Source of the DNA: Gemmatimonadota bacterium
GTDB taxonomy: Bacteria > Gemmatimonadota > Gemmatimonadetes > Palauibacterales > Palauibacteraceae
Reading direction: 5' to 3'
Assembly (NCBI GenBank): GCA_039588275.1
Contig: JBDHAC010000013.1
Coordinates: 1-64,000 of the forward strand
DNA length: 64,000 bases
Positions 2 through 61,167 of this stretch are shown here, piece by piece. Positions within the stretch are counted from its first letter, which is position 1, and every line of letters starts with the position of its first letter. The notes under the pieces were generated by a model, which saw only the letters and a list, made by a program, of their open reading frames with translations, did no database searches and was not told the origin of the DNA. The translations under genes were made by a program, and so were the position numbers.

Positions 2-520
2 AGTCGGCAGGACCAGGTCCGGGTCCTCACCTGGCAGGAGGCGATGCCCTCGCTCGACGCCGCGGTGAAGATGGATGACTTCGGCGACTACGTGTTTCAC
101 GTCGTGACCCTCGTCATCGTGGCACTGGCGATCGTGAACACGATCTTGATGTCGGTGCTGCACCGGACCCGCGAGTTCGGCGTCGTGCGGGCCCTCGGGC
201 TCACGCCGCGGGACACGGGAACCCAGGTCATGGTCGAGGGACTCGTGCTCTCCGCCGTGAGCGGCGTGATCGGGATCATCGTCGGGTTCGCGGTGACCTG
301 GCTGTTCTGGCGTGACGGGCTGGATTTCTCGGGGATGATGGGCGACGGGATCCGAGGGGCCGGGGTAATGCTGGAGCCGATCTTCTACCCGCAGTTCACC
401 CTGCGCGTGCTCCTGCAGAGCTTCACGTTCGTGTTCGCGGTCGGGGTGCTCGCGTCGCTGTACCCGGCGTACCGGGCGACGAAGATCGAGATCGCCGACG
501 CGATGAAGTTCGAGGAATGA
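2..520 (+). CDS. ABC transporter permease, FtsX/LolC-E/MacB family (5'-truncated by window)
   Basis: Frame open from base 2. FtsX signature NTILMSVLHRTREFGVVRALG, TM helices, C-terminal LYPAYRATKIEIADAMK. Confidence 0.9.
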   Translation, partial: SRQDQVRVLTWQEAMPSLDAAVKMDDFGDYVFHVVTLVIVALAIVNTILMSVLHRTREFGVVRALGLTPRDTGTQVMVEGLVLSAVSGVIGIIVGFAVTWLFWRDGLDFSGMMGDGIRGAGVMLEPIFYPQFTLRVLLQSFTFVFAVGVLASLYPAYRATKIEIADAMKFEE

Positions 521-536
521 GGGGGAGGCGAGCAGG

Positions 537-1313
537 ATGAGTCAGGCGCCGGCGGTCCGCACGGATGGGGTGTGGAAGGTGTTCGAGCACGACGGGATCG
601 CCGTCGAAGCCGTGCGAGGGGTGTCACTCGTCATCGAACCGGGGGAGTTCGTCGTTCTCGCCGGACCGTCCGGCTCGGGAAAGACGACGCTGCTCAACCT
701 GATCGGCGGGCTGACGCGGCCGACCGACGGTTCCATATGGATCGACGGTAGAGACATCTCGCAGCTCTCGGAACGCGAGCTGGCGGCGCTCCGCCTGGAA
801 CGCGTCGGCTTCGTGTTCCAGGCCTACAACCTCCTTCCCGTCCTCACGGCGCTCGAGAACGCCGAGTTCACGCTCCTGCTCCGTGGTGTGCCGGAAGGGG
901 AGCGTCGTCGAGCCGTCGAGGCGCTGTTCGCGGAGTTGGGAATCTCCGGCCTCGAGAGCCGGCGCCCCGGGAAGCTCTCCGGCGGGCAGCAGCAGCGCGT
1001 CGCGGTGGCCCGCGCCGTGGCGGGAGAACCGGCTCTCGTACTCGCGGATGAGCCCACGGCCAACCTCGACACCGCGACCAGCGGAGCGCTGATCGACTTG
1101 ATGGCCCAGCTGAACCGCGACCGGGGAACGACCTTCGTTTTCGCGACGCACGATACGCGACTCATGCGGAGAGCCCGCCGCCTGATTCGACTCGTGGACG
1201 GAGCCATCGCCGAGGACGAGGAGCGATCCTCGACGCGGTCGTCTCCCCGACCGCCGCCCGCTGCACCATCATCGGCGGACTCGTCTTCGGCCGGGTCAGC
1301 CAGCCCCGACTGA
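537..1313 (+). CDS. ABC transporter ATP-binding protein, LolD/MacB-type
   Basis: Walker A GPSGSGKT, signature LSGGQQQRV, Walker B VLADEPTANLD, H-loop ATHD. Confidence 0.95.
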   Translation: MSQAPAVRTDGVWKVFEHDGIAVEAVRGVSLVIEPGEFVVLAGPSGSGKTTLLNLIGGLTRPTDGSIWIDGRDISQLSERELAALRLERVGFVFQAYNLLPVLTALENAEFTLLLRGVPEGERRRAVEALFAELGISGLESRRPGKLSGGQQQRVAVARAVAGEPALVLADEPTANLDTATSGALIDLMAQLNRDRGTTFVFATHDTRLMRRARRLIRLVDGAIAEDEERSSTRSSPRPPPAAPSSADSSSAGSASPD

Positions 1314-1316
1314 ACC

Positions 1317-2528
1317 ATGCACGGTCGCCGCATCGCCGTCCTCGCGGCGCTGGGCGCCGTACAAACCACCCTCGGTCCGGCAGCTCGCCCGGCCGCCAGG
1401 AGTCTCCACGGGCAGGCGCCCGAGCTCCGCGGCTACTACCTGCACATCGTCTCGGCGGCCGATTCCGGGCTGTTCTCTCCCTCGGCCGCCACGGACTTCA
1501 AGCGCCTGCGTGCGATGCTCTCCCCAACCGTTGGGCCCCTCGAAGTGGAGATCGCGTACGAGCACGTGCTGAGCGCATCGACGGCGGCCGACCCCGGGTT
1601 CGCGACCGGCCTCGGCACCGCTGCGGGCGGCGAATGGGCGCATCTGCAGGGGACCCTGGCCGAGTCCGGCTCGGTCGAGTGGCGTCACCGCGTCGATCGC
1701 CTGGCGGTCAGTTACGCACCGCTCACGGACGTCGAGCTGACCCTCGGGCGTCAGACGATCTCCTGGGCCACGACCTTGTTGCTCACCCCGGCTGATCCGT
1801 TTGCACCGTTCACGCCCGAAGAGCCGTTCCGGGATTATCGGGCCGGGGTGGACGCGTTTCGGGCTCGGGCGTTCCTCGGCCCGTTCTCCGATCTGGATTT
1901 GGTGGCGCGACCGACGGATACGTCGGAGGGCACGACCCTGACCGCGCTCGCGAGGCTCCATACGGTCATCTCCGGGTGGGAACTGTCGACCTGGGCGGGC
2001 TTGCTGCACGATGGCGGCGCGGCGGCGGTGGGGGTGACCGGGACGTTCGCGGGAGCCGCAGCGCGCGCCGAAGGGGTCGTGCGACGGGTCGATGATTCGA
2101 CCGCCCTGCGATTCACGGTCGGGGTGGACCGCAGCTTCCCGGTCGCGGGGAGGGACCTGTATCTCGTGGCCGAGTACCAGCGCGACGGTCTGGGAGCCGC
2201 CTCCGTCTCGGACCTTCCGATCGTGCTGGCGAGCGGACCCTTCGAACGCGGCGAGCTTCAAGTAGTCGGTCGCCACACCGCGGCGCTGCAGGCCAGTTAC
2301 CAGCCGGACGCGCTGTGGGCCACGAGCCTCCTGTTACTCTCCAACCTGGGCGACCCCAGCCTTCTCATCGGTCCCGGGGTCAGTTATTCCGTGAGCGACG
2401 AAGCCACGGCGCGCGCCGGAATCTTCCTGGGCTTCGGCGATGAGTTGGCGGCGGATGGGGTTCTGCCGGGCTCGGAGTACGGGGCGGTGCCGTCGTTCGC
2501 GTACGTCGCCCTCGCCGCGTTCTTCTAG
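1317..2528 (+). CDS. Secreted probable outer-membrane beta-barrel protein linked to the ABC operon
   Basis: Signal-peptide-like N-terminus, LTLGRQTISW motif, alternating beta-strand pattern, C-terminal Phe. Starts 3 bp after the ATPase stop. Confidence 0.7.
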   Translation: MHGRRIAVLAALGAVQTTLGPAARPAARSLHGQAPELRGYYLHIVSAADSGLFSPSAATDFKRLRAMLSPTVGPLEVEIAYEHVLSASTAADPGFATGLGTAAGGEWAHLQGTLAESGSVEWRHRVDRLAVSYAPLTDVELTLGRQTISWATTLLLTPADPFAPFTPEEPFRDYRAGVDAFRARAFLGPFSDLDLVARPTDTSEGTTLTALARLHTVISGWELSTWAGLLHDGGAAAVGVTGTFAGAAARAEGVVRRVDDSTALRFTVGVDRSFPVAGRDLYLVAEYQRDGLGAASVSDLPIVLASGPFERGELQVVGRHTAALQASYQPDALWATSLLLLSNLGDPSLLIGPGVSYSVSDEATARAGIFLGFGDELAADGVLPGSEYGAVPSFAYVALAAFF

Positions 2529-2586
2529 CCGCTCGATTCCTTCTGGGCCCCTGGCGGCATGCCGCTCCCCGGCGGAGCCTCGACTC

Positions 2587-3075
2587 TCACAGGGTCTCGC
2601 CGCTCTCCTCGATCTTGCGCCACAGAAGTGGGTGGCGTTTGGCCAGGTAGGTGCCCATCACGGCTGCCGCGACGATGTTGGCACCCAGGATCGCCCACCA
2701 CGGAAGCACATCGCCGAGGGGGTCACCAAAGGCGGTGATGAAGAACACGCTGAGGAAGAAGACGCTGACGCACGCGAAGAACGCCACGTACCACACCGCG
2801 GGGTGGAGTTCCACCTCGTACGCCAACCAGGCGACGAGCACGCCGACCGCCAGGAATACGAGCAGGTGCAGGCCGTTGTAGGCCAGCACGGGCGCGGCGG
2901 ACACGAAGCGCTCCGCATCCGTCGAGATCAGCCCGCTTCCGAACCGCGCGGGCGTGTAGAACAGCGAGCGACCGAGCGCCAGATCGATGAGGCTGATGAG
3001 GATCACGACGGCCACGTACCCGAGCACGCCCGTGAACAACCCGTCAACCCAGACCGAGGATCGAGAGGTCTCCAT
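2587..3075 (-). CDS. Uncharacterised multi-pass (4-5 TM) membrane protein
   Basis: Hydrophobic helices. ATG at 3075 (METSRSS) preceded by an AGGAGG RBS. Confidence 0.75.
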   Translation of the reverse strand: METSRSSVWVDGLFTGVLGYVAVVILISLIDLALGRSLFYTPARFGSGLISTDAERFVSAAPVLAYNGLHLLVFLAVGVLVAWLAYEVELHPAVWYVAFFACVSVFFLSVFFITAFGDPLGDVLPWWAILGANIVAAAVMGTYLAKRHPLLWRKIEESGETL

Positions 3076-3147
3076 AGCATCACCTCCTTGCCGGGGCACA
3101 CGCCGCCTCCCGTAGCACGTCACTCGAGTCTCCAGGACCTCGCCGGG

Positions 3148-3161
3148 GCAATCCACGTACC
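3148..3161 (-). promoter_or_regulatory. Candidate sigma54 -24/-12 promoter
   Basis: Minus strand AGGTACG-TGGA-TTGC = GG-N10-GC, about 70 bp upstream of the 3075 start. Confidence 0.4.
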
Positions 3162-3429
3162 TGCCGGCCGGATGTCATCGGAACCCCCGATGCGTCGTTG
3201 CACTCCAGAGTAAAACCCGCCGCTATGCAGTTGAGACGCCGGACGACGCCTCGCGCGTTCTGCGCCGATCCGCCCCAGCCGCTGGGGTGCCACCCGGACA
3301 TTCCGTCCCGGTCCCGACGGTTTCGCACTTCCCGCGACCGGCACGGGGCTCGGGGCACGAGTTCGTCTTTCGCGTCCGTCGCGAATCCGTCAGGTTGGCG
3401 CACGGTCCACGAACTCGAACGGCATCTCC

Positions 3430-4284
3430 ATGATCGGACTGGGTCTCACGAGACGAGCCTCCCTGCGCTTCGCACTGGGCGGCGCCGCGGTCGTATACGG
3501 GTGCGGGGCGGCCCGAAGCCCCGACAGCACCCTGAATGCCGTGTTGTGGGTGCAGAGCTCGGCCGAGTACGCGGCGGCGGCGGCCGGGATTTATGGCGCG
3601 GCGCTTCGGGCGCTGGAGATGGGGCTAGCCGACTCCTCGTGGACGGCTGCCGCGGAGCAGGACGGTGATTACCGGAGGCTTCCCGCGGCCGTGATCCTGG
3701 ACGTGGATGAGACGGTTCTGGACAACACGGCTTACCAGGCGCGGCTGATCGAGGATGGCCAGGTGTACGGGTCCGAGACGTGGAGCGCATGGGTGAGTGA
3801 GGCGCAGGCGGCGGCCGTTCCAGGCGCGCTCGAGTTCACCAGCGCGGCCGCCAGCGCCGCGGTCACCGTGTTCTACGTGACGAACCGCGACGCGGCCCTC
3901 GAAGACGCCACGCGCGCCAACCTGGAGCGCCTCGGCTTTCCGTTGGCCGGCCAGACCGACGTCATCCTCACGCGTGGCGAGCGACCGGAATGGGGCTCCG
4001 ACAAATCACCTCGGCGCGCCCACATCGCTCAGAGATTCCGTATCGTCCTGCTGGTCGGTGACGACCTGAACGATTTCGTATCGGCCGACCGCGCGTCAGT
4101 CGTCCAGCGAAGCGCCCTGGTGGAGCGACACCGCGAAGATTGGGGCACCCGGTGGATCGTCCTCCCGAACCCCATGTACGGCTCCTGGGAGCGTTCGCTC
4201 ATCGGGAGTGCCGACCTGTCCGAGAGCGAGGCGCTTCAGCTGAAGCGGCGGCGCCTGGAGGCGGCCAGGCCACCCCCTTACTAG
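3430..4284 (+). CDS. Class C acid phosphatase / 5'-nucleotidase lipoprotein e(P4) family (HAD)
   Basis: ILDVDETVLDN, VTNR, GDDLNDF and LPNPMYGSWE motifs. TRRASL twin-Arg-like signal and VYGC lipobox. Confidence 0.9.
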   Translation: MIGLGLTRRASLRFALGGAAVVYGCGAARSPDSTLNAVLWVQSSAEYAAAAAGIYGAALRALEMGLADSSWTAAAEQDGDYRRLPAAVILDVDETVLDNTAYQARLIEDGQVYGSETWSAWVSEAQAAAVPGALEFTSAAASAAVTVFYVTNRDAALEDATRANLERLGFPLAGQTDVILTRGERPEWGSDKSPRRAHIAQRFRIVLLVGDDLNDFVSADRASVVQRSALVERHREDWGTRWIVLPNPMYGSWERSLIGSADLSESEALQLKRRRLEAARPPPY

Positions 4285-4709
4285 GTGCCCGTACCTTTGA
4301 CGAGCAACACGGGGCACCGCGCCAGGATGGCGATCTTGTAGCTGAGCGTCGCCCACCCCGAGCTCGGATCGTCGAGCCGCACGCGGTGCGAGTTGAGGAT
4401 GATCAGATCCACGTCGTTCTCTTCCGCGAACTCGACGATGGTCTCCGCACGCTTTCCGTACTCGATGCGCTGGTGCATTCGCACCCCGGCCGCGCGCACC
4501 GGCTCGGCGAGCTCACGCATGGTCTGGACCGCGTTCGCTTCCAGCCTGTCGTAGAACGCGGCGAGCTCCTCGAACGGGAGATCGAGCGTCTCGATCACGT
4601 GGATGAAGGTCACCTCCCCACCCGTTTCGAGGGCCAGATCGCGTGAAGTCTCGATCGCCCGGAGGTTCTCGTCGGTCAGGTCCACCGGGACGAGGATGTT
4701 CTCGAACAT
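4281..4709 (-). CDS. Universal stress protein (single USP domain)
   Basis: MFENILVPVD..., FIHV, G.AETIVEFAEENDVDLIIL, ARCPVLLVK. Confidence 0.92.
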   Translation of the reverse strand: MFENILVPVDLTDENLRAIETSRDLALETGGEVTFIHVIETLDLPFEELAAFYDRLEANAVQTMRELAEPVRAAGVRMHQRIEYGKRAETIVEFAEENDVDLIILNSHRVRLDDPSSGWATLSYKIAILARCPVLLVKGTGT

Positions 4710-4797
4710 TCGTGCCCCCGTTCCTTCTGGCAGGGCGCTGAAGAGCCTCGGCGGCCTGCGATGTCCGTGCCCGCCGTATGCCGGGCGACCCGACGTG

Positions 4798-6312
4798 CTA
4801 CCCCTTGAGCACCCCGATCGGGTGCAGGCGAACCACCTTCGAGCCGATTCCGGCACGGTCGACGACGTTCACGACCTCCGCCACGTCCTTGTAGGCCTCC
4901 GGCACCTCTTCGGCGATCGTCGCGAACGATGCCGCGCGAACCTCGATCCCCTGCTCTCGGAACTCGCGACGCAGGTCACGACCGCGGACCGTCCTCTTCG
5001 CCTGCCGGCGGCTCATTCGCCGGCCCGCACCATGACACGTCGAACCGAACGTCTCGCGATACGCGGCCTCCGTCCCCACCAGCACGAAGGAATACCTGCC
5101 CATGTCCCCCGGGATCAGTACGGGCTGGCCGACATCCTGGTAGACCGCCGGGAGTTCCGGGTGCCCGGGCGGATAGGCGCGTGTGGCACCTTTGCGGTGC
5201 ACGCACAGGCGTCGACGTTTCCCGTCTACCTCGTGCGTCTCCCACTTCGCGTTGTTGTGCGCGACATCGTACACGAGGGTCATGCCGAGGTCCATCCACG
5301 CGCGACCGAGCACGCGTTCGAACGCGATCCTCACCCGGTGCGCCATCATCTGCCGATTGGCGAATGCGAAGTTGGCCGCCGCCGCCATCGCCCCCAGGTA
5401 ACGCTCGGCCTCGGGCGACTCCAACGGCGCGCAAGCGAGTTGTTTGTCCGGCAGGTCGATTCCATACCCGCGGCTCGCGTCCAGCATGACGTCGAGAAAA
5501 TCCGTGCACACCTGGTGGCCGAGACCCCGGGAGCCCGAGTGGATGAAGACGGTGACCGTGCCGGCCTCGAGCCCGAGCCGCGTGGCAGCCGTCCGGTCAT
5601 ATACCTCATCGACATATCCGATCTCGATGAAGTGGTTGCCCGACCCGACGGTGCCCAGCTGCGGCCGGCCACGCGTTATCGCCCGCGCGCTGACCTGTGA
5701 GGGATCCGCCCCTTCGAGCACCCCGCCGCTCTCGATCCGTTCCAGATCCGAGTCGCTCCCGAAACCCTCGCCGACGGCCCAGCCCGCGCCCTCGGAGAGC
5801 ACGGCCCGCACCGATTCCTCGCTCAGCTTGAAGCGCGCCGAACCCGCTCCCACCCCCGCCGGAACGTCCCGCTGGATCTGGTTCATGAGGCTCGGGGTGT
5901 GCGGCGCGACGTCATCGATGTGGATGTCCGATCGGAGCAGCCGAACCCCGCAGTTGATGTCGTAGCCGACGCCGCCGGGACTGATTACGCCGCCCTCGTC
6001 GGGATCGAAGGCGGCCACGCCCCCGATCGCGAAGCCGTAGCCCCAATGGATGTCGGGCATCCCGATGGATCTACCTACGATCCCCGGGAGGCAGGCGACG
6101 TTCGCCACCTGTCGTACAGCCTGATCTCCCCGGATATCCGAGATGAGGGCCCGGTCCGCGTACACGAGTCCTTCGACCCGCATGTTCCCCTGGCGGGGGA
6201 TGAGCCAACGGTACTCGTCGAGCTGACGGAATTCGATCGGCGGCTCTGCGCCTCGCGGCTTGCGAGGGCTCCCGCGCCTTCCTGTCGATGGTCTGGTCCT
6301 GGTCTTACTCAT
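4798..6312 (-). CDS. rtcB: RtcB RNA-splicing/repair ligase (3'-phosphate/5'-OH)
   Basis: MPDIHWGYG, GYDINCG, GTVGSGNHFIE, HSGSRG, YDVAHN, HRKGAT, PGDMG, STCHGAGR (guanylylated His), EEVPEAYK. Confidence 0.97.
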   Translation of the reverse strand: MSKTRTRPSTGRRGSPRKPRGAEPPIEFRQLDEYRWLIPRQGNMRVEGLVYADRALISDIRGDQAVRQVANVACLPGIVGRSIGMPDIHWGYGFAIGGVAAFDPDEGGVISPGGVGYDINCGVRLLRSDIHIDDVAPHTPSLMNQIQRDVPAGVGAGSARFKLSEESVRAVLSEGAGWAVGEGFGSDSDLERIESGGVLEGADPSQVSARAITRGRPQLGTVGSGNHFIEIGYVDEVYDRTAATRLGLEAGTVTVFIHSGSRGLGHQVCTDFLDVMLDASRGYGIDLPDKQLACAPLESPEAERYLGAMAAAANFAFANRQMMAHRVRIAFERVLGRAWMDLGMTLVYDVAHNNAKWETHEVDGKRRRLCVHRKGATRAYPPGHPELPAVYQDVGQPVLIPGDMGRYSFVLVGTEAAYRETFGSTCHGAGRRMSRRQAKRTVRGRDLRREFREQGIEVRAASFATIAEEVPEAYKDVAEVVNVVDRAGIGSKVVRLHPIGVLKG

Positions 6313-6333
6313 CGCACCGGCTCGCCGTTTGAT

Positions 6334-6822
6334 TCACACGTCGAAGATCACCCGCGCGTGCCATCCTGGGCCTACGGGGCCCACGTCGAGATCGTGGTAC
6401 GTGACACCCTTGAGCTCCCGAACGGGCGCTCCTTCGGTCCGGTGCAGCCCGACGCGGGCCACGAGATGCGTATCGCTCAAAGACTCGAACTCGAAATCTG
6501 CCGGAACGAGCTCTTGCGCGTCGTACAGGTACAGCAGCTCCTGGAGCCACCGCGCGAGCAGCACGTCCACCGTCGTGGCCCGCAGGCTGATCCCGAGTTC
6601 CCGGCGCTCGCGCGTATCGACCGATTCGGTTTCCTCCGTGAAGAGGGCGGAGTCCGGATCGTCCCACATGAGCGCGAACATGCCGGCAGCCGCGCGCTGG
6701 AAGATGGCATCTCGCGTCGATCCCACGACCTCGATGCCGAGGTCGGCTGTATGATCGAGCTCGCGGACCCCCGGATGGATCTCATCCCCCGAGGTGCATG
6801 CCTGCGGTTCCTCGCGATCCAT
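6334..6822 (-). CDS. Archease (RtcB activator)
   Basis: LDHTAD, ELKGVTYH and C-terminal VIFDV motifs. Directly upstream of rtcB. Exact start uncertain. Confidence 0.93.
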   Translation of the reverse strand: MDREEPQACTSGDEIHPGVRELDHTADLGIEVVGSTRDAIFQRAAAGMFALMWDDPDSALFTEETESVDTRERRELGISLRATTVDVLLARWLQELLYLYDAQELVPADFEFESLSDTHLVARVGLHRTEGAPVRELKGVTYHDLDVGPVGPGWHARVIFDV

Positions 6823-7061
6823 CACAACCCTCACGCGTGTCACGCTCAATCTAACGTGCGCTGACCCGAATGGTGACCGCACCGTTGGGACAAACCGCGC
6901 TCCGGCGCCGTCGGGACCCGGCCAGAATGTCTCGGCGGATCTCGCTTCGCGATCGATGCGAGGACCCGCAGTCCGCGATGAAATCGCCGTTTGGAGCGCC
7001 CACGGTACCCCGGTCCGAAACAGGCAGTGATCGAGGGCCGGTGGATAGAACGGAGGTGGTC

Positions 7062-7496
7062 ATGTCCGTAGGCACAATCTGCAGTCAATCCGTCGTGACG
7101 GCGGGCGCGAACGAATCGATCCGCGAGGCAGCTCGACGGATGGCACGGCTATCGGTCGGCACGCTGGTCGTGACGGACCTCGACCAGGGTGAACGCCCGA
7201 TCGGCATCCTCACGGACCGCGACATCGTGACGCGCTGCATAGCTGCCGGATTGGATCCGGACAACAATCCGGTATCCAGCATCATGTCGGTCCCGGTGCG
7301 CTCCGTCGGCGAGGATACGCCCGTCGCGGATGCCCTCTCCATCATGGCGGGCGGAGGCATGCGCCGTCTGGTGGTTACCAACGCGCAGGACCGACTGGTG
7401 GGGATCCTGGCATTGGACGATGTGATCGAACTGCTCGTGAAGGAGGCGGACGCGGTCGGACGCCTGTTGCTGAAGGCCACGCCGGCGGCGGTCTGA
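7062..7496 (+). CDS. CBS-pair protein (Hrp1/Rv2626c-like)
   Basis: GGAGG RBS. IREAARRM...GILTDRDIV...IMS.PV...RRLVV...VGILALDD. Confidence 0.92.
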   Translation: MSVGTICSQSVVTAGANESIREAARRMARLSVGTLVVTDLDQGERPIGILTDRDIVTRCIAAGLDPDNNPVSSIMSVPVRSVGEDTPVADALSIMAGGGMRRLVVTNAQDRLVGILALDDVIELLVKEADAVGRLLLKATPAAV

Positions 7497-7534
7497 GTCC
7501 CCGGTTTGCCGAGGGTCGTGCGAGAGAGAGCAGG

Positions 7535-8122
7535 TCAGGCGTTCCGTTCGCCCGCGACGACTCTCAGCACGTCGAACGTGGTCACGATGCCCCGGAGCAG
7601 CCCCCGCTCCAGGACGAGCGCACGGTGGACTTTCGCGGTGAGCAGGAATCGCGCGAGTCCCTGAACCGTAGTGCTCGGGCGCACGCTCAAGCGAGCCGGC
7701 ATCATGATGTCCGCCACCGTTCTGGCACCGAACGGGGTCGGCGCCAGGAGCGGGACGAGATCGTGTTGGTGCAGGGTGCCGCCGGCGTCCCGGAAGAAGG
7801 CCGACACGCTCCCGGACTCACTTTCCTCGAGAGCGAAAGCGACCTCGGACTGCGCGTCCGACTCCCGGCTCGGACCCGATTCGCGCACGGGCGGCTCCGT
7901 CGTCTCACTCGATACGAGCCGCAGGACATCGCTCGCCGAAACGACCCCGACGACGCTGCCCCCGCGATCGATCACGGGAGCGCCCGTGATCTGCCGGTCC
8001 AGGAGCGTCCGAGCGAGCTGCGCCACGCTCATGGTCGGCTCCACCGTCAGAACACTCGTCTGCATGATGTCGGCCACCTTCATGTTCGCAGCATCGAGCC
8101 GGGTCGTTTGAGCCGGGTTCAT
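7535..8122 (-). CDS. CBS-pair protein with acidic insert
   Basis: KVADIMQ...ITGAPVID...VGVVSASDVL and VADIMM...VHRALVL...GIVTTFDVL. GGAGAGGAGG RBS. Confidence 0.9.
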   Translation of the reverse strand: MNPAQTTRLDAANMKVADIMQTSVLTVEPTMSVAQLARTLLDRQITGAPVIDRGGSVVGVVSASDVLRLVSSETTEPPVRESGPSRESDAQSEVAFALEESESGSVSAFFRDAGGTLHQHDLVPLLAPTPFGARTVADIMMPARLSVRPSTTVQGLARFLLTAKVHRALVLERGLLRGIVTTFDVLRVVAGERNA

Positions 8123-8160
8123 GGCGCCTCCTCTCCGGGCCGGGCCCGCATACGTCCGGT

Positions 8161-8174
8161 GCGCGAATCGTGCC
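8161..8174 (-). promoter_or_regulatory. Candidate sigma54 -24/-12 promoter of the CBS gene
   Basis: Minus strand GGGCACG-ATTC-GCGCA = GG-N10-GC, about 40 bp upstream of the ATG. The -12 box is imperfect. Confidence 0.3.
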
Positions 8175-8343
8175 CCGGCAGCGCCTTTTGGACGCGAGCT
8201 AAAACCTGTTGGCGTGCGGGCGCTTCAGGGGGCACCCGTCGGTGCATGGCGACTCCTCCTGAGGCAACCTGTCCCACGGTCCCTCCGAGTCATGGGGAGG
8301 AGCGTCGCACGCCAGGTGGGTATAGAATGGACTGTCCGTAAAC

Positions 8344-9567
8344 GTGGGACTCGCGGCGTCGGATGCCGCGAGCCGAGAGGAGGTGACTTTGGACTTCTTC
8401 GGGCGTGCTCACCTCGATGAGCTGATGAGAGCTTCGTCCGCGCCTGCCATCTCGATCTACCTGCCCACCAGCCGGGGGCGATCGGCCGCCGATCATGATC
8501 GCCTGCGATTCAAATCGGCCCTCAAGCGCGCGCGCGCCCTCATCGAGGAGACGGATGGCTCGGAGGCGCGCCGATTGAGTGATCTGCTCGACCCACTGGA
8601 GCCTCTGGCGCGTGAGCGCAGGTACTGGAATGGGGCGAAAGGCGGGCTGGCGGTGTTTCGCTCGCCAGAGATCAGCCGCCGCTTCAGGCTCCCCGCGGAC
8701 TTCCCGGAGCTGGTGGTGGTCGGACCGACCTTCCACACTCGACCGCTTGTCGGCTTCCTCCAGGCCCCGGATCGATACTGGGTGCTGGATCTGAGCCAGG
8801 GGCGTGTCCGACTGTGGGCCGGGGACGTGAGCGGCCTCCATCCGGTCGACGCGGAATCGCTCCCGGGGAGCCTGGACGAGGCCCTCGGCTACGAGTACTC
8901 GCGCGATTACGAAGTCGTGCACAGGAGCGGACCTCCAGACGGCCGTAGCGCTCAGCGCGGGGGCGTCCTCGGGTCCTTCCACGGGCATGGTGTCGGGGCG
9001 AACGACCGCGAGCCGGAGCTGCGGCGTTTCTTCAAGGCGGTCGACGACGCGTTGAACGGGCTCCTGGGACCCGAGAGCGGACCGGTGGTCCTGGCCGCGG
9101 TCGCCGAGCACCATTCGCTGTACCGTGCGACGAGCCGTCTGGACACGCTTGAGCCGACGGGGATCGAAGCGTCCGTGCGCGATTGGGGGGCGCAACAGCT
9201 ACATCGTAGAGCCTGGCCACTCGCGCTGCGGGCGGCGGACGCACAGATCGAGCGGGCTCTCGAGCTGTGGGAGAGCAGCTACGGACGGAGCAAGACGGAG
9301 CAGGGGCCGGTGAACATGGGTCCCCTCGCCATGGCGGGACGCGTACGCCTGCTCCTCATCGAGCGCGGACGCCGTCTGTGGGGAAGCCTCGACCGGGCTA
9401 CCGGCCGTATCCAGGTGCGTCACGATGGCGGCGACGACCCCGGCGCCGACGTGGTCGAGCTCCTCGACGAGCTTACCGAGGTCGTGCTGCTCAAGGGTGG
9501 TCGTACCCTCGCGCTGCCCCCGGAGAGGATGCCCACGACCACCGGGGCTGCCGCGATTCTGCGATAG
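8344..9567 (+). CDS. Bacterial archaeo-eukaryotic release factor-like protein (baeRF family 3/7-like), putative Balon-type ribosome hibernation factor
   Basis: PAISIYLPT, GLAVF, VGPTFHTRPL, YWVLDLSQ.RVRLW, FHGHG, FFKAVDDAL, PVVLAA, GRVRLLL and C-terminal GAAAILR. No GGQ. Confidence 0.8.
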   Translation: MGLAASDAASREEVTLDFFGRAHLDELMRASSAPAISIYLPTSRGRSAADHDRLRFKSALKRARALIEETDGSEARRLSDLLDPLEPLARERRYWNGAKGGLAVFRSPEISRRFRLPADFPELVVVGPTFHTRPLVGFLQAPDRYWVLDLSQGRVRLWAGDVSGLHPVDAESLPGSLDEALGYEYSRDYEVVHRSGPPDGRSAQRGGVLGSFHGHGVGANDREPELRRFFKAVDDALNGLLGPESGPVVLAAVAEHHSLYRATSRLDTLEPTGIEASVRDWGAQQLHRRAWPLALRAADAQIERALELWESSYGRSKTEQGPVNMGPLAMAGRVRLLLIERGRRLWGSLDRATGRIQVRHDGGDDPGADVVELLDELTEVVLLKGGRTLALPPERMPTTTGAAAILR

Positions 9568-9631
9568 GGCGCCGTCGCTGCACGCGCGGTGTGCTGCCGG
9601 GCCCATGCGTGTGCCTCAGCGCCGGCGCCGC

Positions 9632-9928
9632 TCAACTCTCGGGCGTCGCCAGCTCCCGCTCGAGCGCGTCCGCGTCCACGTCGCTCGCGTGTGCGCAGGC
9701 GTCGAGCATCTGCTCGAGGCGTGCGGGGTTGAATCCGACGATCACGTCATTACCGTGCGCGATCATGGGAACGCCCGCTCCACCGCTCAACGCCCGCCAC
9801 TCCCTCAAGACTCCCACATCGGAAGTGATGTCCAGCTCCTCGAACTCACACCCTCGCTCTCTCAGCCAATCCTTGGCATCGTGGCAATAGGGTCAGGTCG
9901 GAGTCGTGTAGACGCGAATCTTGGCCAT
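9632..9928 (-). CDS. Glutaredoxin/NrdH-like selenoprotein with UPYC active site (in-frame TGA at 9895-9893)
   Basis: ATG GCC AAG ATT CGC GTC TAC ACG ACT CCG ACC TGA CCC TAT TGC = MAKIRVYTTPT-U-PYCHDAKDWLRERGCEFEELDI...GVPMI...IVGFNPARL. Joins track ORFs 9893..10192 and 9632..9817 in one frame. GGAGAGGA RBS. Confidence 0.85.
9851..9892 (-). promoter_or_regulatory. Putative bacterial SECIS element
   Basis: mRNA after UGA is CCCUAUUGCCACGAU-GCCAA-GGA-UUGGC-UGAGAGA-GCGAGGG. Apical stem GCCAA/UUGGC with a G-starting loop 21 nt after UGA. Lower stem CCCU..UGC/GCG-AGGG. Confidence 0.65.
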
Positions 9929-10026
9929 CGGGCTATCCTCTCCGCTAAGATGCTCGGCACACGGGGACGAAGCGCGCGGCGGTACTACACCGCTGCAGCC
10001 GGATCCTAACCTCCCGGGGGTAAGCC

Positions 10027-10683
10027 GTGCACGACGCACAGCGAGTCGCGAGCGACATCTTCGACGCGTTGGCCGGCGAGGCCTGGTATGCGGCGGCCAG
10101 GCACATCCACCCCCGAGTCGCCGCGCGCCTGTACCACGAGACGAGCGAGCGCATTCGGCATTGGAGCGAGCCAGAGGGGCCGACGCTCGCACAGTTCCGC
10201 CAACAGGATCCCGACATGCCCGAGGCGGTCGCCGAGTACCTGGTGGCCAGGGCGAGGACCTCCCGGTACGTGCCCACGACGTGGACCGATAGCTTTCCCG
10301 GCCTGGAGAGCCCCGAGGAGTTCGAGGCGATGACGTCGCTCGACTACATGGCGCGGTATCTAGAGACGTTCGACGTGCGTGCGCAGTATCGAGCCCGACT
10401 GGAGGACGACGGCGAGGCGGCCCACGAGTGGACTGCGGACATGGCTCGCGGGCCGGACCGGGTGATCCTGGGCGCCGTGCTCGAGGGAGACGACGTGGCC
10501 CACATCACGTATCGGGTCACCTGGTCCCGCGAGGACGGACCCGGACTTCTGGATCACGTCGACCTCCTCACGCTGCGCAAGAGCGACGATGGGTGGAAGG
10601 CGGTCAGCATCGAGCTCAACGGCTTGCCTAAGAACATGTGGTTCTGGGTCCAGGTGCCGTCGCTACCGGAGCACGAGTCGTGA
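10027..10683 (+). CDS. Hypothetical protein, possibly NTF2/SnoaL-like fold
   Basis: Coding-like ORF. C-terminal VAHITYRV...LLTLRKSDDGWK pattern. Stop overlaps the next GTG start. Confidence 0.6.
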   Translation: MHDAQRVASDIFDALAGEAWYAAARHIHPRVAARLYHETSERIRHWSEPEGPTLAQFRQQDPDMPEAVAEYLVARARTSRYVPTTWTDSFPGLESPEEFEAMTSLDYMARYLETFDVRAQYRARLEDDGEAAHEWTADMARGPDRVILGAVLEGDDVAHITYRVTWSREDGPGLLDHVDLLTLRKSDDGWKAVSIELNGLPKNMWFWVQVPSLPEHES

Positions 10684-11252
10684 TCAACGGCCGGCGAGCG
10701 AACCGGCCTCGCCTGTCCATGCTCGCGAGCGCCGTCGCCGTGACCGCTGCCGTCTCCGTCGCTCTCGCCGGTTGTCGGAACGAGTTCGCCGAGCGGCTCA
10801 CGCTGGAGCTCCCGCCGGGGCCGGAAGTGGGCCGGCCGGCTCCGGTTTTCGAGGCCACGGCGCTGGATGGGGCGACCGTACGGCTCGCCGACCTTCGCGG
10901 GCGCGCGGTGCTCCTCAACTCGTGGGCCACCTGGTGTCTCCCGTGTCTGGAAGAGATGCCGGAGCTCGAGGAGCTTCAGCGCCTTCATCCGGCCGAAGAG
11001 CTCGCGGTGGTCGGGGTCTCGATCGACGCTCTCCCGTTGCCCGAGATCCAGGAGTTCCTCGACGAGCACGGGATCACGTATCGGAACCTGTGGGCCCGGG
11101 CCGACGACCTGCACGAAACGTTCGACTGGGGGCGCGGAGTCCCCAAGACCGTGTTGATCGATGCGAACGGCGTGATCAGAGGTTATTGGGCCGGGCGCTT
11201 CAGGCCGTTCGATCCGGAGAACGAGGTGCTGATCGACGCTACGCTACGATGA
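10680..11252 (+). CDS. TlpA/ResA-like thioredoxin-fold disulfide reductase, probable lipoprotein
   Basis: LLNSWATWCLPCLEEMP, cis-Pro GVPKT, LAGC lipobox. Confidence 0.9.
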   Translation: MINGRRANRPRLSMLASAVAVTAAVSVALAGCRNEFAERLTLELPPGPEVGRPAPVFEATALDGATVRLADLRGRAVLLNSWATWCLPCLEEMPELEELQRLHPAEELAVVGVSIDALPLPEIQEFLDEHGITYRNLWARADDLHETFDWGRGVPKTVLIDANGVIRGYWAGRFRPFDPENEVLIDATLR

Positions 11253-11294
11253 GAGTGCGGTGCGTCCCGCAGCCCGAATGAGGGAGTCCAAGCC

Positions 11295-11645
11295 ATGCCC
11301 GCGACGTTAAAGCCGCCGATCGACATGCAAACACTCGAGGCCATCGACGTGCGCGTGGGCACGATCGTCCGGGTCGAGGACGTCGCCGGGGCCAGAAGCC
11401 TGGTTCGACTGCGCGTCGATCTGGGGGATCACGAACGGACCGTCCTCGCCGGCCTCAAGGGAGAGCGTGTGGATCCGAGCGAACTGGAGGGGATGCAGGC
11501 GCTGTTCGTCGTAAACCTCGAACCCCGGGAGATGATGGGAGAGGTCTCGGAGGGCATGCTGTTCGACATCGGTTACGCCGATGGCATCACCCCGGTGCTG
11601 GCGATCCCCGAGATGCCGGTGCCGCCCGGAACTCAGGTCGGGTGA
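11295..11645 (+). CDS. tRNA-binding OB-fold protein (CsaA/Trbp111 family)
   Basis: IDVRVGTI, VDLG, VVNLEPREMMGEVSEGML, PPGTQVG. Confidence 0.9.
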   Translation: MPATLKPPIDMQTLEAIDVRVGTIVRVEDVAGARSLVRLRVDLGDHERTVLAGLKGERVDPSELEGMQALFVVNLEPREMMGEVSEGMLFDIGYADGITPVLAIPEMPVPPGTQVG

Positions 11646-13293: not shown

Positions 13294-14187
13294 TCAACTC
13301 GGTTTGCGGGCGCGCACGAACGCGGACATGTACTTCCCATCCGCGGCGTTCGCGATCTCCTCGGCTTCCGGACCGAGCCCTGCCACCAGCTCGCGTGCTT
13401 CCTCCAGCCGATACACTCGAGTCGGCTCGATGTCGATGTCTTGGAACCCGGCTTCAGCCAGGAGTCGCCGATATTCCTCTTCCTCTAGGGCGCCGGCGAC
13501 ACAACCGATCCACAACTCGACGCTCTTCCGGACCGCAGCGGGGACTTCCCCCCGAACCACGATGTCGGAGACGGCGAATCGTCCGCCCGGCTTCAGGACA
13601 CGAAAGGCCTCGCGAAGGACCTGGCCTTTGTCCGCGGACAGGTTGATGACGCAATTGGAGATGACGACGTCTGCGCTCGTGTCCGGGAGCGGGATGTCCT
13701 CGATCTCCCCTTTGAGGAATTCGGCGTTCTGAATGCCGGCCTCCCGACGATTGCGGTCCGCGAGCTCCAGCATGTCGTCCGTCATGTCGAGCCCGTATGC
13801 CATCCCCGTGGGTCCCACGCGACGCGCGGAGAGCAGTACATCGATCCCGCCACCCGACCCCAGGTCGAGCACCACTTCGCCTGCCGTGAGCTCAGCGAGC
13901 GCGGTCGGGTTCCCGCACCCCAGGGAGGCTAGCACCGCGGCCTCCGGCAGTTCGGCGGTTTCGCCCGCTTCGTACAGATTCGCGGTGATCGGATCGCGCT
14001 CGGCCTCCGCCGTCGCGCCCGCCTCGCATCCGCAAGGATCACAGCAGGACGCATCGGAGGCTTCCGGAGGAGTCTCGACGCTCCCGCACCCGGGGATCCG
14101 TCCGTCGGCCGCCTGCCGTGCGGCCTCACCGTATTTCTCGCGGATCGTCTCCCTCAGGACCCCCGCGTCGGTCGTCTCCTTAGACAT
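13294..14187 (-). CDS. arsM: Arsenite S-adenosylmethionine methyltransferase
   Basis: [34 protein letters not shown]. Downstream of arsR. Confidence 0.93.
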
Positions 14188-14222
14188 ATGTCTCTCCTCG
14201 AAGGTTGAGAGTCGGTAGACAG

Positions 14223-14238
14223 ATCAAGTTTTTTTGAT
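14223..14238. promoter_or_regulatory. ArsR-type operator palindrome ATCAA-N6-TTGAT between arsR and arsM
   Basis: ATCAAGTTTTTTTGAT, an AT-rich inverted repeat in a GC-rich background. Confidence 0.65.
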
Positions 14239-14293
14239 ACGTACGCCCACAAAAAAACGTCCTGCGCAAAGACAAACCGGTGTTTCGAGACCA

Positions 14294-14602
14294 TCAGCAG
14301 CAGGTTTCTTCGGGCCGACTCGCCTCGGCGAGGTCGGTAAGCTGCGCCGCCAGCTCCCGGAGCGCGTCGCGATCGACGGCGTAGTACATCCAGCGCCCTT
14401 CCCTGCGCACCTCCACGAGCCCGGCTTCTCGGAGCGTCTTGAGGTGGAAGGAGAGCAACGGCTGCCGGTCATTGCAGCAGCCCGTGAGATCGCAGGCGCA
14501 GCGTTCTCCGCCCGTGAGCGAGCCCAGGATTCGGAGGCGCTTTTCCTCTCCGAGCGCCTTGAAACGGGCCGCGGTCTGCTTTGACGAGATCGTTCGTGCC
14601 AT
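14294..14602 (-). CDS. arsR: ArsR/SmtB family metalloregulator
   Basis: FKALGEEKRLRIL, ERCACDL As(III)-binding box, LSFHLKTLREAGLV..RREGRWMYY, C-terminal CC. Confidence 0.93.
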   Translation of the reverse strand: MARTISSKQTAARFKALGEEKRLRILGSLTGGERCACDLTGCCNDRQPLLSFHLKTLREAGLVEVRREGRWMYYAVDRDALRELAAQLTDLAEASRPEETCC

Positions 14603-14608
14603 AACACC

Positions 14609-14636
14609 ATTATATAAAATATTATTTATATGTCAA
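14609..14636 (-). promoter_or_regulatory. Consensus sigma70 promoter with overlapping operator; leaderless arsR transcript
   Basis: Minus strand TTGACA-N16-TATAAT-N6-ATG. The spacer carries the inverted repeat ATATAAA-N6-TTTATAT. Confidence 0.8.
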
Positions 14637-14763
14637 GAGTGGGCCTCCACGTCGAGTAGTGTCCTCGTGTCCGGCCGGAGGCGCGGTTACAATTTGGGAT
14701 GACATTCCGTCCGAGGACGATCGGTCCCGCCGCGCCTCGAACTCGAGGAGGAGGAAGACGCCG

Positions 14764-15087
14764 ATGCCGTACACGTGGGAGGAGCTACACGAAAAGACTG
14801 TCACTCAACTTCGTGAGATCGCCGAAGGTATCGAGCACGACGCACTTCACGGCTACTCGACGATGCACAAGGAAGACCTCATCCCCGCCTTGTGTGAGGC
14901 GCTCGGGATCGAGGCACACGCGCACCATGAGGTCGTGGGAGTCGACAAAGCGGCTATTAAGTCGGAGATCCGCGAGCTGAAGGTGAAGCGGGACGAGGCC
15001 CTGGCGGCCGGAGACAAGGTCGCGCTCAAGCGGGTGCGGCGTCGGATCCACCGGCTCAAGGGTGAGTTGCGCAGGCATACCGTCTAG
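14764..15087 (+). CDS. Small protein with Rho N-terminal-like helical domain and basic coiled-coil tail
   Basis: EELHEKTVTQLREIA...GYSTMHKEDLI resembles Rho_N. GAGGAGGAGG RBS. Confidence 0.7.
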   Translation: MPYTWEELHEKTVTQLREIAEGIEHDALHGYSTMHKEDLIPALCEALGIEAHAHHEVVGVDKAAIKSEIRELKVKRDEALAAGDKVALKRVRRRIHRLKGELRRHTV

Positions 15088-15118
15088 GAGCGGATCGCGA
15101 CCCGGACGACCAGCGCGC

Positions 15119-16114
15119 TCAGAGCGGCACCGTCAGACCCAGCCCCAACTCCTCCGCGGCAGCCACCACGGCGCTGGCCATGGCGATGTCCTGGGCGGCA
15201 TTGCCCACCGACTTGAACAGCGTGATGTCCCACCCCGCCCGACCCCGAGGGCTCGTGCCGTTCACGATCTGACCCAGCTCCGCCGCGATGTGGGACTCGT
15301 CGATCGTGCCCGCCCGCAGGGGGACGATCAGATCTCCCGCTTCCTCCCAGGCAGCCTCTCGAGAATCCACGATGACCCGCGCGTTGGCCACCGTTGCCGG
15401 GTCGACCTCCTGCATGTCCGGGCGGAACGAGCCGACCGCGTTGATGTGCGCCCCCTGCTCGACATGGCGCGCATCGAACACAGGCTTCTCGCTCGTCGTC
15501 GCGGTGACGATCAAGTCGGCGCCGCGGAGAGCGTCGCGCGGGTCGCGGACCGCCCGAAACACCGGGGCGCCAGGTCCCGACCCGCTCATCTGGCTGTCGA
15601 GCTCGGCGGCCAAGTGCTCGGCGGTGGTGCCAGAGCGGGACACGATTCGGATCTCCCGTAGCGCGCGCACCGCGGCGAGGGCCCAGACGTGAGCGCGCGC
15701 TTGAACGCCCGCACCGAACAGGGCGAGGACCGAGGCATCGGGCGTCGCGAGGAGATCCGTCGCGAGGGCGCTCCCCGCCGCCGTACGGCGCGCGGTGAGC
15801 TCGCTCCCGTCCAGCAGCGCGCGTGGGGCGCCCGTGACCGCATCCAGCAGGAGCACGGCCCCCTGGACGATCGCCAGACCGAGGCCCGCGTTGTCGGGAA
15901 ATACCGAGACGATCTTGACCCCCAGCTCACACGTCTGATCGAGGTAGGCGGGCATGGTGAGCGTCGCGCCCGCCGCGCTCACGAGCTGCCCGCGCAGCGG
16001 GACGCTCGCTTCTCCCGAGGAAAGCTGGCCGAAGGCCGACCGCATGGCGTCGATGGCGCCCAGGGGATCGATGGCGGCCCGTACGTCCGCTGCCGATAGG
16101 ATTCGGATCGTCAT
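15119..16114 (-). CDS. Ornithine cyclodeaminase / mu-crystallin family
   Basis: GVKIVSVFP, LTARRTAAGS, GAGVQA, ADLIVTAT, HINAVGS, LFKSVG.AAQD. Confidence 0.93.
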   Translation of the reverse strand: MTIRILSAADVRAAIDPLGAIDAMRSAFGQLSSGEASVPLRGQLVSAAGATLTMPAYLDQTCELGVKIVSVFPDNAGLGLAIVQGAVLLLDAVTGAPRALLDGSELTARRTAAGSALATDLLATPDASVLALFGAGVQARAHVWALAAVRALREIRIVSRSGTTAEHLAAELDSQMSGSGPGAPVFRAVRDPRDALRGADLIVTATTSEKPVFDARHVEQGAHINAVGSFRPDMQEVDPATVANARVIVDSREAAWEEAGDLIVPLRAGTIDESHIAAELGQIVNGTSPRGRAGWDITLFKSVGNAAQDIAMASAVVAAAEELGLGLTVPL

Positions 16115-24200: not shown

Positions 24201-24670
24201 GCCGAGGAATGCTTCAGTCCCTCTCGTTCGATCCGTCGCCCCCGCTCGACTCTCCGAGCGCGCTCGACGGCCACCTCGAGCAACCGGCGACGCAGCCCCC
24301 GCGCCTGCGCGGCGTCCGCGCCGACCTCGTCAACAGCGCTCAGGACCGCGCTCTCGAGCGTCGGCTCGTGCTCCTCAAGGTAGAGGGCCACCTGTTGATC
24401 GCTCACGCGGCGGAGGAGCGGCCGGACGATGAACAGGGAGACCAGGACGATCACCCCGACCCAGAGCACGATGCGAAAGGCCGTCACGGCCGGGTCGGCG
24501 AAGCGCAACCGGTCGATCCCGAAGGTCGATAGAAGGAAGATCGCGAATCCCGCCGCTAGAGCGATCGCCGCGCCCCGGAGCAGCAGACGAAACCGCCACC
24601 GCCTTCGCACATCCCGGATGACGTCGCGCAGCTCTTCGCTCGGTTCTCTCCCGGTCCAACGCCTCATCAT
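21227..24670 (-). CDS. DUF4175-like membrane-anchored long coiled-coil protein with Ig-like domains
   Basis: Three N-terminal TMs, DQPPAVSI..PGRD, AEDDFGI, Gln/Gly-rich coiled coil, C-terminal VPPEYRALVEEYYRAL. Confidence 0.8.
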   Translation of the reverse strand: MMRRWTGREPSEELRDVIRDVRRRWRFRLLLRGAAIALAAGFAIFLLSTFGIDRLRFADPAVTAFRIVLWVGVIVLVSLFIVRPLLRRVSDQQVALYLEEHEPTLESAVLSAVDEVGADAAQARGLRRRLLEVAVERARRVERGRRIEREGLKHSSAWLGGVATAVLLIALFGPGFQGTAGSLLLSPWKTADAANPYAIDVQPGDILIPRGSDQEITAFTRGFETDEVEIAVQRGESETWERFRMVPSDAGEGFEILLFDLNEPTTYSVESEGVRSGVYTIDVADLPYVDRIDLEYRFPSYTGLAPRTVEDAGDIAVLRGTEVRLNITPTIPTHAGQIVIQGSEEPIPLELGNGTFSGTLTVERETFYRVELGGPNGGFVVASPDYLIEPLDDQPPAVSIREPGRDTRANPIEEVYVEVEAEDDFGIGRVQLRFSINGGEEQSIALHESGEGGTKDLSRGHTFFLEEFPLEPGDFVSYYATATDLASPGVRQTATSDIYFLEIRAFDRTFRQAEQGGGGGAGGGGMDGQLSRQQRQIVAATFRLQRDEDQFDEAEKSENLATLTLLQGRLREQVEELVNQMQMRGVAADPTFQKVFEELPQAAEAMREAEERLGERKPAEALSPEQRALQHLQRAEAAFRDVQVAMGQQGGGGGGGGGSSEAEDLADLFELEMDRLRNQYESVQRGERRDRDQQVDEALQKLEELARRQQQLNERAGAQAGAADGGQGQNRLIEETEELARQLERLSREESRPELGESARRLQDAADQMRRSAASARQGGAQGQGSAALDRLRQARRLLEDRQTAALEGDVEEALRRAERIVERQRDIAEDVSSVADGGESEAIRQLRDRKDELAAEVDQLEADLDRLARESRSEQREASRALGEAANSARQNRLRDKILYSKGVIGARSGDYTRNFEDQITQDAEELRDRVADARDAFRESDPRRLGRQLEETRDLVRGLESLQERMRQQMEGPAGEDQQQGEGEQQGQGQQGGQGQQQGEGQRGQGQDERQGQAGGGGFAPGGGGRLTPGDIRQFRNEFGRRREDAERLRDELRRDGVDVGELDAAVRDLGRLESQRLYDDPEEMQRLQEAILRGLKDFEFALRRGLSAELERLFLSGSDDVPPEYRALVEEYYRALSEGRTPPR

Positions 24671-24733
24671 TCGCCTCCAGGGCTCGAGCCTACGGGCTCG
24701 ACCACGTTCTTGGAATCAGGTGATCCGCGGGCA

Positions 24734-27753: not shown

Positions 27754-27756
27754 GGC

Positions 27757-28857
<1,101 letters not shown>

Positions 28858-28868
28858 GCGTGCTCCTC

Positions 28869-60254: not shown

Positions 60255-60267
60255 CTGCTCACTTCCT

Positions 60268-61164: not shown

Positions 61165-61167
61165 GCC

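Follow-up and report, generated by a model that had tools for sequence, protein, structure and literature searches.

A likely low-oxygen dormancy island with RNA-repair and ribosome-hibernation genes in Gemmatimonadota, and its selenoprotein glutaredoxin neighbour

The closest described counterparts of the locus presented here are gene islands linked to hypoxia and dormancy. In Mycobacterium tuberculosis, block 8 of the DosR regulon (Rv2623-Rv2631) groups universal stress proteins (USPs), Rv2626c, Rv2629, Rv2630 and RtcB. DosR regulon genes, whose types include phosphoribosyltransferase (PRTase), nicotinamide recycling, hibernation-promoting factor (HPF) and USP, are reported to be spread across environmental bacteria (PMC5309233). 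In the proteobacterium Burkholderia cenocepacia, lxa is described as a DosR-like, low-oxygen-induced island with several USPs (PMC3721108). RtcB, RaiA and Hrp1 are reported as neighbours of the ribosome hibernation factor Balon (PMC10901736), an association of baeRF with HPF was noted earlier (PMC6514570), and chimeric HPF genes have been reported beside Balon (bioRxiv 2025.11.04.686544). Operons of archease and rtcB are also known (PMC3973293). Here, we analyse a 64,000-nucleotide stretch of a Gemmatimonadota genome (hereafter the window; GCA_039588275.1, contig JBDHAC010000013.1, positions 1 to 64,000), in which genes for a USP, RtcB, archease, two CBS proteins and a baeRF homologue of Balon lie next to a gene for a selenocysteine (Sec) glutaredoxin (Grx).

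We find that the first six of these genes likely form the right end of a low-oxygen dormancy island of about 20 kb, and that the Sec-Grx is probably an unrelated neighbour; we put the probability of this reading at roughly 0.6. It builds on what is directly established at the locus, namely the gene identities, their co-location and the conservation of their motifs. An initial annotation, made from the sequence of the window, had already grouped the USP, CBS, baeRF, archease and RtcB genes and compared them with M. tuberculosis Rv2623-Rv2631. The comparison is borne out by the gene content of DosR block 8 (PMC5309233). The grouping is also largely right, as usp, rtcB, archease, the two CBS genes and baeRF make up one end of a stress island that recurs, in shuffled form, in other genera.

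Gene content and recurrence of the island

The window opens contig C13 of an assembly of 4.1 Mb that is 86% complete (G000; other genomes are given by similar labels). Pfam assigns seven contiguous genes to Usp, RtcB, Archease, CBS, CBS, baeRF_family3 and Glutaredoxin, which confirms the positions and identities first proposed for them. The closest Grx records are from Gemmatimonadota, and the genome is therefore not actinobacterial, as had been suspected. Strand order across the seven genes is - - - + - + -, and these four switches imply at least five transcription units (archease-rtcB-usp, CBS1, CBS2, baeRF and grx), ruling out a single operon. Since the Grx gene converges on baeRF, it cannot be co-transcribed with rtcB. 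A scan of window positions 2500-11500 for sigma-70 promoters and terminators returned no sites. The left part of the island (44..4284, assigned by Pfam and synteny) holds FtsX, ABC and outer-membrane genes, a membrane protein gene and a gene for an e(P4)-like acid phosphatase; the last two also flank rtcB in G015, G094 and G119.

The RtcB RNA ligase (4798..6312, minus strand; PF01139, E 3e-174) is of the archaeal/Thermus type in its Cys form. It carries the motifs PDIH, DINCG, GNHF, HSGSRG, HNNAK and STCHGAG, and its best PDB match is 2EPG from T. thermophilus (E 4e-179), followed by Pyrococcus RtcB. We found only this one rtcB in the assembly. The gene for archease, the RtcB activator, lies on the same strand at 6334..6825 (open reading frame (ORF) 6334-6882, likely start 6825; PF01951, E 7e-28). 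Archease keeps HTAD, KGVTYH and a terminal D-V, residues that are invariant in all six aligned archeases except for the last one, which is V, L or I; the equivalent residues are reported to be required for RtcB activation (PMC3973293). On these alignments, the RtcB-archease pair appears complete, with catalytic motifs intact and metal-site residues present in the adjacent archease. The same-genus genome G002 has two archease-rtcB pairs from different clades (contigs C22/C11 and C239), where G000 shows one.

The single-domain usp (4281..4709, minus strand; PF00582, E 1e-19) is the last gene of the archease-rtcB-usp unit, and usp is also found directly downstream of rtcB in G001, G002, G015, G094 and G092 and at most loci of a sister family. 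In USPs, the GSHG motif serves in ATP binding. An alignment to solved USPs shows that the window protein reads NSH where its relatives have GSHG, and this missing segment makes nucleotide sensing by the window USP doubtful. The doubt touches the earlier proposal that CBS and USP proteins sense adenine nucleotides.

CBS1 (7062..7496, plus strand; PF00571 twice) is a stand-alone, Hrp1-like CBS pair whose PDB matches include Rv2626c (E 7e-11), and its orthologues adjoin baeRF or rtcB in G001, G002, G113, G092, G105 and G109. CBS2 (7535..8122, minus strand; PF00571 twice) is a CBS pair with an internal insert. It is absent from the corresponding place in both same-genus genomes (G001 and G002), and an orthologue with 51% identity adjoins CBS1, baeRF and rtcB in G113. 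The notion of CBS2 as a random insertion is weakened, since G113 carries CBS2 within the module. Abstracts report that archaeal CBS-containing proteins bind ribosomes directly, and CBS1 or CBS2 could therefore act on ribosomes by analogy.

The baeRF gene (8380..9567, plus strand, within ORF 8344-9567; PF18845, E 9e-31) likely starts at a TTG at 8380, after AGGAGG, and is preceded by a conserved TATAGAAT-like element of housekeeping type. The only significant PDB match of its product is Balon (8RD8_B, E 3e-13, residues 10-388), and the protein has neither the GGQ nor the NIKS motif. It scores below the cut-off of NF052287, the AOC03_06830 family (121.8 versus 330 bits). As a full-length Balon homologue, it is the relative of hibernation factors that it had been taken for. 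The G000 island has no HPF gene, and the only HPF of the genome is on contig C34. At two related loci, a gene for protein-L-isoaspartate methyltransferase stands directly upstream of baeRF (L194, 7124-7855; L195, 11757-13772). In G119, this methyltransferase is fused to an erythromycin esterase; it adds protein repair to the module.

The grouping recurs in other genera. We placed the window gene in a quick maximum-likelihood tree of RtcB with 61 rows (41 Gemmatimonadota loci and 20 of 80 metagenome loci, with partial matches left out), which has three supported clades. Clade A includes the window gene (support of 99 in the Shimodaira-Hasegawa-like approximate likelihood-ratio test, SH-aLRT), and its members surround rtcB with varying subsets of the same genes. 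G015 and G094 carry HPF-archease-rtcB-usp together with acetate kinase, phosphoenolpyruvate (PEP) synthase, CBS and tandem USP genes. The neighbours are CBS2, CBS1 and baeRF in G113; baeRF, USP and CBS in G119; USP, PRTase and CBS1 in G092; HPF in G021 and G004 (the latter placed by identity, being too short for the tree); and nicotinate phosphoribosyltransferase (NAPRTase) or PRTase in G016, G080 and G006. In the sister-family clade, archease-rtcB-usp is found at all 11 loci that have downstream sequence, often with an added NAPRTase-like gene and APH-AAA kinase. In the third clade, rtcB belongs to a housekeeping block with fur, pyrE and nfu, closed by a baeRF gene in convergent orientation.

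Family-wide proximity of baeRF and rtcB was considered as proof of a functional link and rejected, as it mostly reflects this housekeeping block with the other RtcB clade. In three genomes (G021, locus L189; G006, L193; G082, L197), the archease of the fur-pyrE-nfu-baeRF block lacks an adjacent rtcB, and G021 and G006 carry an rtcB of the other clade elsewhere in the genome.

Gene order and content vary in every genus, and the grouping is also accompanied by an arsM-like gene, arsR, a DNA ligase gene and ABC genes. Both would fit accessory genes that accumulated by chance at an insertion hotspot and share no function. However, the same functional classes surround rtcB in two RtcB clades and in several orders, and adjacency of Balon and RtcB is reported across phyla (PMC10901736). 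We consider such a chance accumulation very improbable.

The predicted oxygen sensor and candidate sigma-54 sites

The likely regulator of the island escaped the initial annotation: it lies on the adjoining contig and consists of a heme-PAS kinase with a sigma-54 activator. Contig C95 of the same assembly breaks off in the ftsX genes from which the window starts, and the end of C95 and the start of C13 are colinear with unbroken sequence in G001 and G002. C95 encodes a LolA-like protein, acetate kinase, one CBS protein, one tandem USP and, at 898-3736 of locus L294, both a PAS-HisKA_3 kinase and a sigma-54 activator of REC-AAA+-HTH architecture. The best solved matches of the kinase PAS domain are 10JX, FixL and DosP (E 3e-17 to 2e-9). 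The His that aligns with the conserved His of FixL, which we take to be the heme ligand, is kept in all 21 kinases examined. We predict that the C95 kinase is a FixL-like heme-PAS oxygen sensor.

The kinase gene lies within 20 kb of a clade-A rtcB or archease in G001, G002, G015, G094, G119, G021 and G092 (7 of the 18 other clade-A genomes located, with G000 added by the contig join), and it adjoins CBS1-baeRF in G105 and G109. It is also widespread alone (54 of 114 family genomes). The REC-AAA+-HTH activator carries GSFTGA, a variant listed as functional (PMC4641369), as its loop-1 motif; rpoN is present in the genome, and the kinase-activator pair occurs at 15 or more loci.

Sigma-54-like sites are enriched before the CBS and tandem-USP genes of the island. 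Nine were found upstream of island genes, where 200 shuffles gave 1.9 on average and 7 at most, and 7 of 40 island upstream regions had one compared with 46 of 1525 background regions; these counts are tempered by hand-set site weights based on a general consensus, and by the relatedness of the genomes. A weakly scoring candidate GG-N10-GC site upstream of CBS1 (6886..6901, plus strand; coordinates derived from an offset of -176) is at the same position in G000, G001 and G002. A candidate -24/-12 site precedes CBS2 (8160..8175, minus strand; derived from an offset of -53), and similar sites precede island CBS genes in G000, G092, G113, G109 and G119. Patterns for FNR, CRP, DosR and Rex showed no enrichment over 200 shuffles; DosR-box-like sites numbered 2 versus 1.0.

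These elements suggest how the island may work. As oxygen falls, the FixL-like histidine kinase of C95 would sense the change through its heme-PAS domain and phosphorylate the adjacent NtrC-like activator, which would act at sigma-54 promoters before the USP and CBS genes. The acetate kinase gene would be induced along with these. By homology to Balon, the baeRF protein would occupy the ribosomal A site and park ribosomes. Archease-activated RtcB would, again by homology, rejoin RNAs with 2',3'-cyclic or 3'-phosphate and 5'-OH ends, and acetate kinase, USP and CBS proteins may adjust energy metabolism.

Several observations weigh against this reading. The join of C95 and C13 is drawn from relatives, as the two contigs have no overlap. 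Near rtcB, the clade-A genomes G007, G009, G012, G070, G087 and G111 have none of the queried partners besides archease. baeRF and archease lie within 10 kb of each other in 21 of the 44 family genomes that have both, mostly in the fur-pyrE-nfu housekeeping block. In the single-contig genome G070, about 0.5 Mb separates the kinase gene from archease, and the regulator beside the kinase in G021, G070, G016, G007 and G006 matches the activator over its receiver part only. HisKA_3 kinases usually pair with NarL-type regulators, and the pairing of the kinase with this activator is thus inferred from adjacency only. No sigma-54-like site was found before archease-rtcB or baeRF in any of the three members of the genus, and G001 and G002 do not share the candidate site before the G000 usp, which leaves sigma-54 control of the repair and hibernation genes unsupported.

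The absence of sites before archease-rtcB and baeRF, together with the housekeeping-type TATAGAAT-like element at baeRF and the varied stresses to which Balon homologues are reported to respond (PMC10901736), would also fit a general stationary-phase or starvation cluster that is not specific to oxygen. The kinase pair would then govern the USP, CBS and metabolic genes alone, with separate promoters for baeRF and for rtcB-archease. Against this stand the heme-PAS-type sensor, which accompanies the island in several genera, and the companion genes, which match the hypoxia-induced DosR and lxa sets; we regard a general stress cluster as unlikely. For the low-oxygen island that we prefer, the more specific proposal that a FixL-type heme-PAS kinase drives a sigma-54 activator in a DosR-like Gemmatimonadota regulon stands, in our view, at about even odds.

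The selenoprotein glutaredoxin and its relation to RtcB

There is strong support for the Grx (9632..9928, minus strand; Pfam Glutaredoxin) being a selenoprotein, as the initial annotation had proposed for its UxxC motif. Codon 12 is an in-frame TGA which, read as U, gives a YruB/NrdH-like protein of 98 residues with U-P-Y-C. The genome carries selA, selB and selD, all above curated cut-offs, and tRNA-Sec. A bacterial selenocysteine insertion sequence (SECIS)-type hairpin is at 9865..9877 on the minus strand (GCCAA-GGA-UUGGC). Its 5-bp stem and its GGA loop, which starts 20 nt after the UGA, agree with the published bacterial SECIS model of a stem of at least 4 bp and a loop of 3-9 nt that has G first or second and lies 16-37 nt from the UGA (PMC13188914). 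The selD gene itself has one TGA and the same hairpin geometry (contig C4, about 94375), and a genome-wide scan for the exact geometry returned three matches: selD, the Grx and one probable chance match.

The hairpin tracks the UGA codon. Among 24 orthologues, all five pairs form in 21 of 21 with UGA, and one pair is broken in all three with Cys. The Asp codon within the hairpin is GAT in 21 of 21, compared with 35 of 113 at other Asp positions of the same genes. A wider set of 30 loci has TGA at codon 12 in 25, TGC or TGT in 4 and a cut-off sequence in 1. The GGA loop is found in all 25 UGA loci, with five pairs in 23 and four in 2, and the 4 Cys loci keep 3-4 pairs. The folding energy of the hairpin was no better than that of shuffles (z -0.87 to 0.34). 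A pseudogene is ruled out by the conserved TGA, the SECIS element and the Sec machinery. The Grx represents a clean selenoprotein family in which the SECIS hairpin decays once Cys replaces Sec. Sec-glutaredoxins are a known family (PMC13188914). The best PDB match of the window protein is 7C10, annotated as a glutaredoxin (E 6e-11); the protein has a conserved C-terminal Cys region, and 77 of 80 relatives from a genome-contig collection have CxxC.

The Sec-Grx had been counted as a member of the RtcB module. Our neighbourhood survey speaks against this, as the gene is not conserved beside rtcB beyond one genus. Only 3 of 30 Gemmatimonadota Grx loci have rtcB nearby, all from this genus and covering its three members. 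At the other 27, no rtcB, archease, baeRF, USP or CBS gene was present in the fetched DNA, which extends for at least 5 kb on both sides in 17 of them. Grx and rtcB are 0.8-1.7 Mb apart in four single-contig genomes (G028, G030, G031 and G250), and G119 and G094 carry the module, yet their Grx (in the Cys form) is on different contigs. In the sister family, Grx usually adjoins a UvrD-like helicase gene. Among the 80 relatives from the genome-contig collection, rtcB is present only at the same-genus locus. The 80 metagenome rtcB loci, many of them short (43 of at least 8 kb) and scanned with profiles built from the loci of the present analysis, had archease in 65, HPF in 3, USP in 2 and Grx, baeRF or CBS in none. 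A conserved Grx-rtcB neighbourhood is ruled out by these counts.

A functional link could exist without such a neighbourhood if the Sec-Grx were a dedicated reductant of the metal-binding Cys of RtcB, acting mostly in trans and physically linked in this genus. The statement in the initial annotation that human RTCB is oxidatively inactivated is supported, and thioredoxin is reported to restore its activity (PMC13247085), which makes Grx-RtcB chemistry plausible. The distribution is also nested, though the signal is weak: 27 of 29 Grx genomes have a full-type RtcB or archease, above the base-rate expectation, and this counts against the Grx as a mere bystander. In the phylum sample, where the unpublished genomes G301, G278 and G185 count as one row each, archease is found in 6 of 7 genomes with Grx, compared with 60 of 251 overall; the corresponding family figures are 9 of 9 and 47 of 114. 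The use of Sec is insufficient to explain this co-occurrence, because selA is far more common (199 of 251); as its sole cause, it was rejected. Adjacency to rtcB is moreover kept in all members of the genus.

However, no Grx locus outside the genus has rtcB, archease, baeRF, USP or CBS nearby, no metagenome rtcB locus has a Grx match, and the only rtcB found among the 80 Grx relatives is that of the genus. Within the phylum sample, 54 of 60 archease genomes are without Grx. Conversely, no RtcB match was found in two genomes that carry Grx, the single-contig G339 (95% complete) and G036 (83% complete). The Grx of the window is transcribed opposite to baeRF, and kinship of the genomes and shared habitat can yield a nested distribution. 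A dedicated bacterial RtcB reductant, the counterpart of thioredoxin for human RTCB, is on this evidence distinctly unlikely. The Grx is probably a bystander that lies outside the island, and probably a general thiol reductase that moved beside it in the ancestor of the genus. Less probable again is the joint proposal of a DosR-like regulon rebuilt with a FixL-type kinase and a sigma-54 activator, in which the Sec-Grx would reactivate oxidised RtcB when oxygen returns.

Other parts of the window have further features. To the right of the Grx (10027-11645) are genes for a 218-aa protein without a Pfam match, a TlpA-like redoxin and a tRNA-binding-domain protein, the first two of which are missing from the corresponding place in G001 and G002. 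Positions 13294-16114 hold an arsM-like methyltransferase gene, arsR and an ornithine cyclodeaminase-like gene. All three accompany the island or its kinase in G015, G119, G110, G111 and G112, and the arsM-like gene and arsR do so in G094 as well. A series of long minus-strand ORFs, none assigned to a family, occupies 21227-35807. At 59160-63981, a large ORF and its neighbours give the impression, from their N-terminal sequences, of a molybdopterin oxidoreductase unit with its chaperone, and this is a possible additional selenium or anaerobic respiration locus.

Relation to known systems

Balon beside RtcB is already published, the dormancy-island type is already known, and Balon's operon datasets may already list such loci. 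We did not find in print the island in Gemmatimonadota or its heme-PAS/sigma-54 wiring; of the new elements, the inferred regulator lends itself best to testing. Our findings extend to a further phylum the hypoxia and dormancy islands in which RNA repair is combined with ribosome hibernation, and name a testable regulator distinct from DosR, composed of a heme-PAS kinase and a sigma-54 activator. A search of the literature for RtcB with glutaredoxin or selenoprotein gave no bacterial Grx-RtcB study among the matches listed, and a dedicated bacterial reductant of RtcB would matter more for that reason; gene context argues against one.

The Grx can be compared with cGrx1 of Clostridium oremlandii, a native selenoprotein with a U/C-P-x-C motif and a proposed reductant of MsrA (PMC7642778). 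Both are Sec-glutaredoxins, and the best match of the window protein is 7C10, which may be a structure of cGrx1. Unlike cGrx1, with its proposed role as MsrA reductant, the window Grx has the conserved C-terminal Cys region.

The archease and rtcB genes are adjacent and co-oriented and keep the activator residues, as in known archease-rtcB operons, but here they are embedded in a stress island. The lxa locus is likewise a DosR-like island with several USPs outside Actinobacteria; RtcB, archease and Balon were not met in the part of its description at hand (PMC3721108), and none of them was sought. Likeness to Balon extends over the full length of 8RD8, including the lack of GGQ and NIKS, whereas the protein falls under the NF052287 cut-off of that family and the G000 island has no HPF.

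The closest resemblance is to DosR block 8, which also places USP, an Hrp1-like CBS pair, an aeRF1-like hibernation factor, archease (which we take Rv2630 to be) and RtcB together. Related Gemmatimonadota loci add HPF, PRTase, NAPRTase and APH-AAA kinase genes. The island differs from block 8 in phylum and gene order, and its baeRF matches Balon and no mycobacterial PDB chain at E <= 1. DosS/T-DosR combines GAF kinases with a NarL-type regulator, whereas the local pair here is PAS-HisKA_3 with a sigma-54 activator (a NarL-type regulator was not sought genome-wide). The island would work like the DosR or lxa islands and is not a member of the DosR regulon. If our reading is true, the same gene set has been placed independently under different oxygen-sensing wiring.

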